Made by a program: the position numbers and the translations under genes. DNA of 64,000 bases from Escherichia coli (GTDB lineage: Bacteria; Pseudomonadota; Gammaproteobacteria; Enterobacterales; Enterobacteriaceae): the NCBI RefSeq assembly GCF_003018255.1, contig NZ_CP027440.1; one strand, written 5' to 3'. Each line of letters opens with the position of its first letter. Positions within the stretch are counted from its first letter, which is position 1. This document shows positions 57,786 to 61,594 of the stretch, piece after piece. Below the pieces are notes generated by a model, which saw nothing but the letters and a program-made list of their open reading frames with translations, did no database searches and was not told the origin of the DNA.

Positions 57786-58080
57786 GTTGACCTCATTTGC
57801 CCTTAACGCCGGGTCGCGGAACTAAAAACCTGCTGCGCTGTTATACAAAGTGTTCCCGCCGTCATGTTCATACGCCTCGGGCTGGCTACTTAACCCCTGA
57901 CCACTGCCTGGTAACTCGAAGTATTGCCTGGCGTTCTGTGGGGCGGGGTGGGTTGGTGATATAATGTACCTGCTGTTCATTAATGTAAAGTACTTTTAGT
58001 ACATTTTTGTGAGAGGTAAAATATCAGGAGGGGATGAGAGGAGCATAAACCCGGAGGGAAGCTACCGGATTTATGCAGAT

Positions 58081-58500
58081 TCAGGAGGCTTTTTGTTTTT
58101 TCTTTCGCGCTAATTCTTCATAAATTGCGTTGTACTTCTGTTTTTTCTCCTCAAGAGTTTTTAAAAGTTCATCAGTTTCACTGTCAGGGAGTTCATCAAG
58201 AAGTTCAATGATGATTTTTTGCTTCGGACTTAACTCCTGATAGAAACGCAGGCTTCCGCTTTCTTCAGTGTCCTCCCCCAGAAGGTAAGTTGGTGTTGTT
58301 CCGATAAGTGCTGCCAATTCTTTCAGTTTCTCTCGACGGGGAATTGCCTCTCCATTAAACCATTTACTAACCGCTTTGGGTGTTAGCTTCATTCGACGGG
58401 CAATTTCTGCCTGCCTTCCGTGTTGTTCAAAGCCAGCATTTTCACAGGCTAGCGCAAGCCTGCTGGCGAACTCTTTACGCGCTTCATCTTCATGAACCAT
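58081..58500 (-). CDS. Prophage repressor (CI functional analogue, XRE-type HTH, no S24 peptidase domain)
   Basis: ORF track 139 aa; HTH region RRMKLTPKAVSKWFNGEAIPRREKLKELAALIG; divergent from a cro-like gene; acidic C-terminal half. Confidence 0.75.
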   Translation of the reverse strand: MVHEDEARKEFASRLALACENAGFEQHGRQAEIARRMKLTPKAVSKWFNGEAIPRREKLKELAALIGTTPTYLLGEDTEESGSLRFYQELSPKQKIIIELLDELPDSETDELLKTLEEKKQKYNAIYEELARKKKQKAS

Positions 58501-58579
58501 AAGTTCAATGATATTTGCTATTGAATGTACTGTCAGTTCTGTTATATTGTGTACTCAAAGTTCACATTGTGAGGGTGAT
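58501..58579. promoter_or_regulatory. Divergent promoter/operator region of the immunity module (pRM-like and pR-like)
   Basis: Palindrome TTCAAT-N10-ATTGAA at 58504-58525; + strand -35 ttgaat (58521-26) and -10 tatatt (58543-48); minus strand -35 ctgaca and -10 tatcat placing the start within a few nt of the repressor ATG (leaderless). Confidence 0.55.
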
Positions 58580-58846
58580 ATGAGCCATACAACACTTGCA
58601 GATGTAATCAAAGCAGTTCGCGTTTCTGTTGTAGCCGATGTTTGCGGTGTCAGCCAAAGAGCAATCTACAAATGGATGAATAATGGAAAATTACCGCGCA
58701 CAGAATATACAGGCGAAACAAATTACGCTGAAAAAATTGCTCTGGCATCAAACGGATTATTTTCTGCTGATGCGGTTTTGACTATTGGCAGGATTAAGCC
58801 TACAGCGAATGAATCACTGGCGGTGAACAATGAAAATCACCCCTGA
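58580..58846 (+). CDS. Cro-like HTH regulator (YdaS-like)
   Basis: Internal ATG of ORF 58508..58846 with SD gagggtg; HTH ADVCGVSQRAIYKWMNNGKLP; divergent from the repressor. Confidence 0.7.
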   Translation: MSHTTLADVIKAVRVSVVADVCGVSQRAIYKWMNNGKLPRTEYTGETNYAEKIALASNGLFSADAVLTIGRIKPTANESLAVNNENHP

Positions 58847-59381
58847 ACAGGTTTGTGAGGCTCTGGATGCCTGGGTATGCCGACCAGGAATGACACAGGA
58901 GCAGGCGACGATATTAATCACGGAAGCATTCTGGGCTCTGAAAGAACGCCCGAACATCGATGTTCAACGCGTCACGTTTAATGATGGCGAGGTTGATCAA
59001 CGGGCGCTGGGCGTTAATCGAGTGAAGATATTCGAACGCTGGAAGGCTATCGACACCAGGGATAAGCGTGAAAAATTCACGGCGCTGATTCCGGCAATTA
59101 TGGAGGCTATCCGGGTAAGTGATTTCAGGTTGTATTGTGAAATTACTGACGGAAAAAGCATTACGTACATGATCGCCGGGTTAAACAAAGAGTATGGCGA
59201 TGTGGTGGAGTCCGGGCTGCTTTTTGCGGATCCAGTTGTTGTGGAACGTGAGACTGATGAGCTTATAGAAAAAGCCATTGCTTTCAAGCGTGCGTATCGT
59301 CAGCAATACCAACATTACTTTGCAGATAAACAAATATCTGTCTGGGGTTCGTATGAGTATCGATGCACTACGATGGGCTAA
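58830..59381 (+). CDS. Hypothetical protein in the CII position of the early-right operon
   Basis: ORF track 183 aa; overlaps the cro-like gene end by 17 nt; family not recognised. Confidence 0.6.
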   Translation: MKITPEQVCEALDAWVCRPGMTQEQATILITEAFWALKERPNIDVQRVTFNDGEVDQRALGVNRVKIFERWKAIDTRDKREKFTALIPAIMEAIRVSDFRLYCEITDGKSITYMIAGLNKEYGDVVESGLLFADPVVVERETDELIEKAIAFKRAYRQQYQHYFADKQISVWGSYEYRCTTMG

Positions 59382-60390
59382 AAAGGTGAAAACCGGCAGT
59401 TCATCCAGTAAGTCAGTATTGACCTGGCTTGCTGATATGTGCGGTGCCGATTTGTGCGCATACCCGTCTATATCTGCACTGGCAGAAGTAACGGAACTGA
59501 ACAAAAAGACTGTGCAGGACAGTTTACGACACCTGATGGAGATTGGGTTAATTGTTGATACTGGTGAGAGAAAAGGCAGAACAAAGCAAATTGTGGTGTA
59601 CCGACTTATCGGTGTAGAAGAAAGTGTTGCCGAGCCTGAATACACCCAAAAACGGGAGTCTTTAAAGGTGGGTAAAATTGGTACTGTTAATAAAAATAGT
59701 ACCGAAAATGGTTATGTTTCAGCACAAAACAGACCCAAAAACGGAACTCTTAGCTGCATGGAAAATAACCAAAGACACCCAAATTTTCCATCAAAGACAC
59801 CCAAAAACGGATCACGGAACCCAAAGGAACCCAAAGATCTAAACCCCACACATAACGCACGCGAGAGTGCTCCGACCAGTGAGCAGGAAGTTTTGTCGTT
59901 ACAGGCAGCGCCCCCTGTATTCTTGGATGGCCTGAGCGAACCCATCGGGAAATTTTCGATGACTACTGTCTGGCAGCCGTCGCTGGATTTTCGACAACGG
60001 GCAGTAGTGTGGGGTATGGCTCTGCCTGAGCCGGAATTTACACCTGCTGAGCTTGCCGCATTCCGGGATTACTGGATGGCGGAGGGGAAGGTTTTCACGC
60101 AGGTTCAGTGGGAGCAGAAATTTGCCCGTCACGTGCAGCACGTCAGGGCACAGGTAAAACCAGTCAGCAAGGGGGTAAGCCATGCAGCATCAGGTGGCAC
60201 GGCATCACGGGCAGTTCAGGAAATCCGGGCAGCACGCGAACAGTGGGAACGTGAAAACGGATTTATCAGCAACGGAAACGGCCTGGAAGCTGTGGGAGCT
60301 TATGGGGGAGGTGTATTCGAACCGCTGGACTCAGAAGAATGGGGCCGCACCTTCGAAGCTCTGGATTGCCCAGATTGGTGCGATGACTGA
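59353..60390 (+). CDS. Phage replication initiation protein (lambda O functional position; HTH N-terminus)
   Basis: Internal ATG 59353 of ORF 59278..60390 with SD gggg; N-terminus MSIDALRWAKKVKTG... typical of phage replication-initiator HTH domains. Confidence 0.65.
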   Translation: MSIDALRWAKKVKTGSSSSKSVLTWLADMCGADLCAYPSISALAEVTELNKKTVQDSLRHLMEIGLIVDTGERKGRTKQIVVYRLIGVEESVAEPEYTQKRESLKVGKIGTVNKNSTENGYVSAQNRPKNGTLSCMENNQRHPNFPSKTPKNGSRNPKEPKDLNPTHNARESAPTSEQEVLSLQAAPPVFLDGLSEPIGKFSMTTVWQPSLDFRQRAVVWGMALPEPEFTPAELAAFRDYWMAEGKVFTQVQWEQKFARHVQHVRAQVKPVSKGVSHAASGGTASRAVQEIRAAREQWERENGFISNGNGLEAVGAYGGGVFEPLDSEEWGRTFEALDCPDWCDD

Positions 60391-60844
60391 ACAGCAAATC
60401 CGTCTGGTCTGCCGTCAGTGCATGGACCGCTGCCGGGCGGGTGAAACGTGGCCCCCGGACCTGGCTGAGTTTGTTGCGCTGATTTCGGAGAGTGGGGCAA
60501 ATCCATTTGGTCTTACGGTGGATGCCGTGATGGAAGAGTACCGGCGCTGGCGCAATGAATCCTGGCGATACGACGGGAGTGATAAATACCCGTGGCCACA
60601 GCCTGTGCTGTACCACATCTGCCTCGAAATGCGTACCAGAGGGATTGAGCGCCAGATGACGCAGGGTGAGTTAAAACGACTTGCGGAACGGCAACTGACG
60701 AAATGGGCAAAGCATGTTGGTAACGGGATGAGTGTTCCGCCAGTGCGACGACAACTGGAAGGGGCGAAACACCCGAAAGGGCCAACGCCAATTGAACGGC
60801 TGAAACAGGAATACGAACGCCGGAAGGCTGCTGGTTTTGTTTGA
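60182..60844 (+). CDS. Lambda P-like replication protein (helicase loader)
   Basis: ORF track 220 aa; segments WIAQIGAMTEQQIRLVCRQ, PDLAEFVALI, YPWPQPVLYHI, MTQGELKRLAERQL parallel my memory of lambda P; ATG 60182 has SD aagggggt. Alternative starts 60302 or 60383. Confidence 0.6.
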   Translation: MQHQVARHHGQFRKSGQHANSGNVKTDLSATETAWKLWELMGEVYSNRWTQKNGAAPSKLWIAQIGAMTEQQIRLVCRQCMDRCRAGETWPPDLAEFVALISESGANPFGLTVDAVMEEYRRWRNESWRYDGSDKYPWPQPVLYHICLEMRTRGIERQMTQGELKRLAERQLTKWAKHVGNGMSVPPVRRQLEGAKHPKGPTPIERLKQEYERRKAAGFV

Positions 60845-60877
60845 ATCTGGGAAACGATTTTGTCGGAGGAAATTTTA

Positions 60878-61594
60878 ATGGAAACCGTATTTGACGCACT
60901 GAAAGCACTGAAAAGAGCCTCTTCACAGGTAGTGGCGGCCCGCCTTGGAATCAGCCGTGAAGATGCGGTCAACGAACTGTGGAAACTGAAGCGCCGTGGT
61001 GAAGCGGATAACAAGGGGTCGATGTGGTGGCTGACTCAGGCAGGTGAAAGTGAACCAGTGTCACCGGTACCGAAAGTGACAGCGCAAATGCTGACTGAGG
61101 CGATTGAACAACATGGCCCACAAACGGCGGATGAGCTGGCACTTATGTTCGGGATTACCTCCCGCCGGGCGAATTCATCGCTGGCCATGGCAATCAGCAA
61201 AGGGCGTCTGATTCGCGTAAATCAGGGCGGTAAATTTCGTTACTGCATACCGGGCGCTGATTTACCGGCAGAGCCGGAAGCTGCATCCGTAGCGGAAACC
61301 GATGGTAAAGCCTTTCCTCAGCCAGCAGGTGTTGCGTTACCAGTCCAGGAAACGACGACACAGGAAGAAATGAAAACAGAAATCGTGGAAGACATTGTGA
61401 AGTTACAGCCATCGGTCACCGAAACGAAAGCAGATGACCTGATTCTACCATCGCTGCATGTGGCTAACCGCGAGCTGCGCCGGGCAAAAGGTCAGGTTCA
61501 GAAGTGGGAGCGAGTCTGCGCCGCGCTGCGGGAGCTGAACAAGTGCCGGGATATTCTCCGGGATATTACCGCCACCAGAGAACAGCAGCGGTGA
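60878..61594 (+). CDS. Hypothetical prophage protein with two winged-helix-like segments
   Basis: ORF track 60860..61594; ATG 60878 preceded by SD ggagga at 7-nt spacing. Confidence 0.6.

Follow-up and report, generated by a model that had tools for sequence, protein, structure and literature searches.

A long out-of-frame overlap that probably encodes both the initiator C terminus and the helicase loader N terminus in a lambdoid prophage of Escherichia coli

Where does a phage helicase loader gene begin when its reading frame stays open far into the initiator gene that precedes it? The question is raised by two adjacent plus-strand genes in a 64,000-nucleotide (nt) stretch of the Escherichia coli contig NZ_CP027440.1 (assembly GCF_003018255.1), here called the window. 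The first, an O-like replication initiator gene (59353..60390), runs from an ATG at 59353 to a TGA at 60388-60390 and encodes 345 amino acids (aa). The second, a P-like helicase loader gene, is in the +1 frame relative to the O frame and ends with a TGA at 60842-60844. In its long form (60182..60844, 220 aa) it would start at the ATG at 60182, with the Shine-Dalgarno (SD) sequence AAGGGGGT (60169..60176) placed 6 nt 5' of this ATG and within the O coding sequence, and 209 nt (60182..60390) would then be dual coding, specifying O residues 277-345 in frame 0 and P residues 1-69 in frame +1. Two later codons could serve instead, namely, the ATG of Met41 (60302..60304), with an overlap of 89 nt, and the ATG of Met68 (60383..60385), with an overlap of 8 nt, ATGACTGA, across the O stop. 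The first-pass annotation of this DNA had proposed the 209-nt overlap and listed both alternatives, and its coordinates are exact. When prokaryotic genes on one strand are annotated with a long overlap, an error in the start site is usually suspected. On comparison of homologous sequences, we consider it likely (probability of about 0.8) that the P-like gene starts at 60182 on its own SD inside the initiator gene and that some 209 nt are read in two frames.

The strength of this assignment derives in part from the conservation of the initiation signals. A scan of one genome per species yielded 23 loci in which P identity falls as low as 44%, the genera including Citrobacter, Klebsiella, Pluralibacter, Phytobacter, Kluyvera, Leclercia, Pectobacterium, Prodigiosinella, Serratia, Rouxiella, and Samsonia. 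In all 22 of these Enterobacterales loci that could be judged (20 of them intact, representing at least 10 genera), the first ATG of the P frame lies 149-224 nt 5' of the initiator stop, and the relation of this frame to the O frame is +1 in every one. SD strength, taken as the energy of the duplex with the anti-SD sequence, was scored in 19 loci (the window and 18 others). The equivalent of 60182 is an ATG in 19/19 with a mean SD energy of -9.7 kcal/mol; the Met41 equivalent (60302) is an ATG in 19/19 with a mean of -6.0 kcal/mol; and the Met68 equivalent (60383) has a mean of -3.9 kcal/mol, against a background over the window's two genes of -3.3 +/- 2.5 kcal/mol. At this last position the codon is CTG, TTC, TGC, or CTC, none of them counted as a start, in 6 of the 19 loci, and TTG in one more. 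Within the window, AAGGGGGT gives -11.8 kcal/mol at 60182, and the value at 60383 is -3.1 kcal/mol.

Further features of the sequence suggest that these signals are kept for initiation. The SD and the ATG at 60182 are retained in all 57 unique E. coli-type variants, and the SD-to-ATG spacing at this position varies between loci, so that the element behaves as an SD and not as a fixed codon pattern. When the P initiation signals are read in the O frame they give a G-G-x-x-[H/N]-A motif, located in a linker that AlphaFold2 (AF2) predicts to be disordered, and the conservation is therefore better explained by P initiation than by the O fold. From these sequence features, we infer that ribosomes initiate at 60182. 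Alignment with homologous replication modules, one of the checks proposed in the first-pass annotation, thus favors the upstream ATG with its strong SD in each scored locus, while a consistent start of the homologues at 60383, which would have made the overlap trivial, is true of the RefSeq annotation of E. coli only and not of the sequences.

Selection within the overlap was analyzed with an alignment of the 57 unique variants of 59833-60844 present among 80 loci; a scan of viral contigs returned only close relatives (92-100% identity), which were used here. Nucleotide diversity at the three classes of site (O1/P3, O2/P1, and O3/P2) is 0.083, 0.073, and 0.148 in the O-only region and 0.156, 0.037, and 0.021 in the P-only region, so that the maximum falls on O third positions in the former and on P third positions in the latter. 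In the overlap, 60302-60382 has a pure P-type pattern (0.114, 0.003, and 0.004), and 60182-60301 has a mixed one (0.062, 0.003, and 0.086). An OLGenie-style count, which sets changes that are nonsynonymous in both frames against those synonymous in one frame only and was bootstrapped, gives a ratio of nonsynonymous to synonymous change (omega) over the whole overlap (60184-60387) of 0.044 for the P frame and 0.093 for the O frame, with a bootstrap fraction at or above 1 of at most 0.001 for both. Out-of-frame controls lie close to neutrality, at 0.95 for the P frame in the O-only region and 0.85 for the O frame in the P-only region. The test of dN/dS in both frames that had been suggested for this locus accordingly detects purifying selection on each frame over the whole overlap.

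The constraint is not evenly spread, and segment by segment one frame is significant at a time. Over P codons 2-23 (60184-60249), the O-frame omega is 0.036 and significant, and the P-frame value of 0.10 is not (confidence interval, 0-2.7). Over codons 24-40 (60250-60300), the P-frame omega is 0.12, with a bootstrap fraction at or above 1 of 0.018, and the O-frame value of 0.29 is not significant; over codons 41-69 (60301-60387), the P-frame omega falls to 0.007, and the O-frame value of 0.26 is again not significant. Up to about 60250-60265 the constrained frame is that of O, and from there on it is that of P. The earlier reading of an overlap in which both frames code holds for the overlap as a whole, but with constraint that is unequal along its length. 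As P-frame selection is present from about codon 24, P must be translated from a start upstream of that codon, and the sole conserved start there is 60182.

Additional insight is gained when these results are placed on the predicted structures. In P alignments of 20 and 45 homologues, residues 1-33 are variable in sequence and length, and W38, M41, R48, W49, K52, N53, G54, P57, and W61, all upstream of Met68, are nearly invariant; W35 and W38 are conserved upstream of Met41. The AF2 model of P, built from the 45-row alignment, has a mean predicted local distance difference test score (pLDDT) of 75.9, with residues 1-25 disordered (pLDDT below 50) and helices at 24-45, 47-53, and 59-66, the first of which runs through Met41. 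In the P-dominated half of the overlap (60251..60379, plus strand), which encodes the motif AWxLWExMGEIYSNRWxxKNG, these three P helices overlie the tail of O. The last 43 O residues are glycine rich, acidic (net charge, -9), predicted to be disordered, and poorly conserved. The one near-invariant feature of this tail, E-E-[W/R], is the -1 reading of the invariant K-N-G codons of P and is therefore a by-product of the P frame.

The converse applies to the O-dominated half (60208..60258, plus strand), in which the O helix RAVQEIRAAREQWEREN (O residues 286-302) lies over the variable, predicted-disordered P residues from about 10 to 26. Across genera this part of O conserves the motif S-R-A-V-Q-x-I-R-A-A-R-E-x-W-E-R, and AF2 predicts it as a helix with pLDDT of 72-83; the prediction comes from a fusion of O(196-345), a linker, and P, modeled with a 21-row paired alignment at a predicted template modeling (TM) score of 0.31, from which pLDDT and secondary structure only were taken. 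In the models, each ordered segment overlies a disordered segment of the other protein, and the conflict between the frames is relieved by segregation. The overlap may thus be viewed as two consecutive stretches, one up to about 60250 in which O would be constrained and P tolerant, and one beyond it in which P would be constrained and O tolerant.

A start at 60182 also agrees with what is known of lambda P. The P-like protein matches Phage_lambda_P (PF06992; 58.3 bits against a cutoff of 26, residues 58-187) and phrog_109, the "P-like helicase loader" (E = 2e-62, residues 11-219); no NCBIfam model matches it. The top Foldseek matches in the PDB are the lambda P chains of the DnaB-lambda P complex. 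Full-length lambda P (9oa1_Z) is matched with E = 1e-5 and a probability of 1.0 over 217 alignment columns, and domain III alone superposes on 8v9s with a root mean square deviation of 1.0 Å over 70 columns. The global TM-score against lambda P is about 0.49, which is low because the domains are flexibly linked. By family match and predicted fold, the protein is thus a lambda-P-type helicase loader, and its 220-aa form and full-length lambda P are collinear in the model, phmmer placing P residue 69 opposite lambda P residue 81.

Lambda P has four domains: domain I (residues 1-29/40) is an N-terminal lasso that contacts DnaB and is probably disordered in solution, domain II (about 30-119) provides the interface joining the loaders in their pentameric ensemble, and domains III and IV follow (PMC12661323). 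By analogy, we infer that the disordered head of the P-like protein could act as a DnaB-contacting lasso and the helices after it as a loader-loader interface. A 180-aa form begun at Met41 would, on the model, lose the domain I counterpart and half of the first helix, and a 153-aa form begun at Met68 would by the same comparison lose what corresponds to domain I and to half of domain II. In a profile search of 1.84 billion representatives, which gave a small P family of 610 clusters, full-length distant members are 210-250 aa long and have N-terminal regions at least as long as that of the 220-aa form.

Several observations weigh against a start at 60182. Given the O protein, an open +1 frame is only weakly improbable, the probability of meeting no stop having a median of 0.32 per locus for the whole overlap and 0.59 for its first part, and this synonymous-recoding test of open reading frame (ORF) openness is too weak to carry weight alone. 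The variants used for the selection test are phylogenetically related, so that the bootstrap intervals understate the uncertainty. P codons 2-23, besides lacking significant P-frame selection, form a segment that is not conserved between genera, and the case for their translation is consequently built on two points, the conservation of the ATG with its SD and the requirement that translation begin before codon 24. Shorter P forms are annotated in RefSeq, and the invariant Met41 has a moderate SD-like sequence in some loci. What argues for an overlap that is more than chance is the conserved ATG and SD together with selection that is frame specific when judged against the out-of-frame controls.

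Among the shorter forms, a 153-aa protein started at 60383 would make ATGACTGA an 8-nt coupling junction and the upstream P frame an untranslated by-product. It is the start used by PGAP in E. coli, ATGA-type junctions are usual in lambda (4 nt) and in distant P relatives (4-17 nt), and the limited improbability of the open frame can be counted in its favor. It is difficult, however, to reconcile with the strong upstream P-frame constraint seen in both diversity and omega, with the nine nearly invariant residues encoded there, or with a position at which six loci have no start codon and the SD is at background level. The protein would be without three predicted domain II-equivalent helices, and the corresponding deletion in lambda P, of residues 9-86, abolishes function (PMC3640518). 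On these grounds, 60383 is rejected as the start of the P family, and we regard this reading as very improbable; the annotated 153-aa protein, if expressed, is probably a nonfunctional fragment. Initiation at 60302, whether exclusive or giving a second, shorter isoform of 180 aa beside the 220-aa one, is better placed but still unlikely. P residues 1-23 are variable, predicted to be disordered, and without significant P-frame selection, members of phrog_33198 begin at Met41, and the sequence upstream of it is GGGAG-like in some loci. That SD-like signal, however, derives from the conserved W-E codons, lies 3 nt from the ATG, and is missing where E is replaced, and a far stronger SD with its ATG is conserved upstream. 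W35 and W38, the P-frame omega of 0.12 over 60250-60300, and the helix at 24-45, which would be halved, all point to translation from before Met41. As the only start 60302 is unlikely; Met41 is probably an internal methionine, at which an additional start is possible.

It could also be speculated that O and P are joined into a fusion protein by +1 ribosomal frameshifting within the overlap. P is indeed in the +1 frame, and phrog_15931 covers both O and P, implying fused ORFs in some phage records. No slippery or stop-codon-stalled +1 site is seen in the sequence, though, no stable RNA structure is predicted (z = 0.56), P has a conserved SD and ATG of its own, and the one frameshifted locus observed is a disrupted gene. 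The phrog_15931 chimera would arise more simply from indel-fused or misassembled records, and of the readings considered here we give this one the least credence. The phrog_15931 profile itself (482 positions) matches O residues 161-344 and P residues 1-220, with matches that overlap in profile coordinates, and it seems that either indel-fused O-P ORFs or members of mixed frame link the family together. The disrupted gene, from Leclercia adecarboxylata (L099), has a frameshift at about 2600-2692 that takes P into the O frame after residue ~44. Two other copies are decayed, one of them, which is among the 57 E. coli-type variants, by a nonsense codon at P codon 75 (L068) and one by truncation after ~129 codons (L107).

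Taking 60182 as the start, a mechanism can be proposed in which the loader is translated from its own SD while ribosomes on the initiator gene pass through the same nucleotides in the other frame. Frame 0 would supply the last 69 initiator residues, namely, linker, helix, and acidic tail, and frame +1 the first 69 loader residues, a disordered lasso-like segment followed by the first domain II-equivalent helices. As in lambda, the C-terminal part of the initiator would be expected to recruit the loader. Ribosomes translating O cross the ribosome-binding site of P and, more speculatively, may modulate P synthesis. The RNA fold around the P start (60130-60230; -21.3 kcal/mol, z = 0.56) indicates no regulatory hairpin or sequestered SD, and a promoter and terminator scan of 58000-61500 found nothing beyond shuffle expectation and no internal promoter for P.

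Public annotation offers four competing starts for P, giving proteins of 216-223, 180-181, 153, and 140 aa. GenBank and metagenome gene calls have the longest form; RefSeq uses the Met41 start in other genera (Salmonella, Citrobacter, and Klebsiella) and, through PGAP, the equivalent of 60383 in E. coli, the 153-aa form also being that of the Rac-SA53 record; and a DDBJ phage record starts later still. The reference annotation that begins the loader 67 codons later is thus probably truncated. DNA matching the module is carried by 1253 of 5426 complete E. coli genomes and is also present in records of Stx2a-converting phages. The segment studied is 99.9% identical to an E. coli chromosome, in which PGAP gives O the same start as here. 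Long P forms were already known as GenBank gene predictions, and both proteins are of known kinds; what is new is the evidence for a real, conserved long overlap with constraint segregated between the frames and the indication that the RefSeq starts are truncated. No description of the overlap was found in the open-access papers searched. The locus provides a well-controlled counterexample, conserved across Enterobacterales, in which the annotation error runs in the opposite direction from that usually suspected, and it shows a segregation of order over disorder between two proteins of the same replication-initiation step.

The classification of the initiator requires some qualification. Both translations are protein-like, as the first-pass annotation held, with O matching a DnaT domain and initiator PHROGs and P matching Phage_lambda_P and phrog_109. 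The name "O-like" is apt in that O matches several "replication initiation protein" PHROGs, but not in the sense of membership of the lambda O family by sequence: no match to Phage_rep_O (PF04492) was obtained, and BLASTP against lambda O gave E values of 1.9 or more. Comparison with YdaU of the K-12 Rac prophage likewise found no significant similarity, and neither protein can therefore be used to date the O tail. The DnaT domain (PF17948) is matched at 59.3 bits (cutoff, 25) over residues 201-267, the NCBIfam DnaT model gives a partial match of 91 bits that is below its equivalog cutoff, and an N-terminal HTH_36 match (PF13730) reaches 20.2 bits, below the cutoff of 25. The resulting layout is a putative N-terminal helix-turn-helix (HTH), a repeat-bearing linker, a DnaT-like single-stranded DNA-binding domain, a second linker, the helix, and the acidic tail.

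The repeats in the interdomain linker (59644..59835, strand not assigned) consist of three exact copies of the 12-mer ACCCAAAAACGG, at 59644, 59733, and 59799, which occurs nowhere else in the window, flanked by copies of CAAAGACACCCAAA and GGAACCCAAA. These iteron-like direct repeats probably represent the putative origin of the prophage, at a location within the initiator gene like that of ori-lambda. Between the first two ACCCAAAAACGG copies is an AT-rich stretch (about 59680-59725), and the repeats translate in O as a recurring P-K-N-G.

Comparison with known systems helps to delimit what is particular to this module. As in lambda, the initiator precedes the loader 3' of a cI/cro/cII-like region, iteron-like repeats lie within the initiator gene, and the loader belongs to PF06992 and is collinear with the four-domain structure 9oa1 (220 aa here and 233 aa in lambda). 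In lambda, however, the O-P overlap is 4 nt (ATGA) and not 209 nt; the initiator here is not significantly similar to lambda O, whose C-terminal domain is replaced by a DnaT-like one; and the N-terminal half of P is of a distinct sequence type, that of the motif AWxLWExMGEIYSNRWxxKNG. An initiator with HTH_36 and DnaT_C domains paired with a lambda-P-like loader has been described for DopC/DopE and phage relatives (Brezellec et al. 2017, PMC5509034). That pair resembles the present one in having a DnaT C-terminal-type domain in the initiator, behind an N-terminal HTH that is putative here, followed by a PF06992 protein, and differs in that no iterons were found in dopC, whereas the present pair, which is located in a prophage, has iteron-like repeats; the comparison follows the description in that paper, which does not mention a gene overlap.

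The segregation of constraint has parallels in viral overlapping genes, for which a "segregated" model and the relief of constraint by disorder have been put forward (Rancurel 2009; Fernandes 2016, for HIV tat/rev), as outlined in a review (PMC8227390). These share with the present case same-strand, out-of-frame overlap, alternating constraint, and the pairing of order with predicted disorder. Here, in contrast, the overlap joins the ends of adjacent, functionally coupled genes and is not a de novo gene overprinted in an older one.

The distribution of the overlap follows the type of P N terminus. In distant relatives whose P is lambda-like in its N-terminal half, the overlap measures 4 (L110), 4 (L114), and 17 nt (L112), and it measures 227 nt in the locus L113, which shares an N-terminal half of the FWxxMxEIYSDRWxxKNG type. 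As the long overlap accompanies this N-terminal type and lambda-like junctions are found in the distant relatives, it is a derived trait of one P subfamily. In the metagenomic contig of L113, the 348-codon initiator ORF (1181-2227) is absent from the public gene call, where an apparent gap of 724 nt is left, which looks like a systematic side effect of the penalties that gene callers place on overlaps.

The initiators that end in this overlap are diverse. In L100, an overlap of this kind follows a true Phage_rep_O N-domain (PF04492), and initiators in which no domain is recognizable (L102, L105, and L108) end in the same overlap-encoded segment as the DnaT-like ones; in L105, the part resembling the window's initiator starts at O residue 274, which is three residues ahead of the overlap. 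A mosaic breakpoint is present at about 59833-59840, just after the repeats, as many E. coli and viral-contig variants match only from query position 481-488 on. The N-terminal DNA-binding domain and the repeats are thus exchanged separately from the C-terminal part of O and P, which suggests that recombination moves the O C-terminal segment and the P gene together as a single module. Given that unrelated initiators share this end segment, that the O helix is under purifying selection, and that the breakpoint lies upstream, we tentatively propose that the segment might be a portable adaptor, in which the 5' 200 nt of P also encode the initiator's C-terminal helix and tail that engage the loader or DnaB, so that this segment could not be parted from the loader gene and swaps of origin-binding domains would always keep a cognate initiator-loader pair. 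A role of the O helix as the P-binding adaptor is speculative. In a further P protein (P0127, from L110), the N-terminal half resembles that of lambda P and the C-terminal half that of the window's P (WRNESYRY, PVMYHICVE), and this chimera points to recombination between P subfamilies at the domain II/III boundary.

The surroundings are those of a lambdoid early region, with a minus-strand HTH repressor, followed by Cro-like, YdaT/CII-like, O-like, P-like, and DUF1627 genes. The last 29 nt of the YdaT/CII-like gene (58830-59381) are shared, out of frame, with the 5' end of the O-like gene (59353-59381), and the same 29-nt overlap is present in the PGAP annotation of a near-identical E. coli record. 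The DUF1627 gene 3' of P (60860-61594) has alternative starts at a TTG (60860) and an ATG (60878), and its homologue is annotated as frameshifted in the E. coli O26 strain 11368. ORFs of 291-292 aa in which P is fused to DUF1627 (P0032 and P0120) are also present in the protein database.

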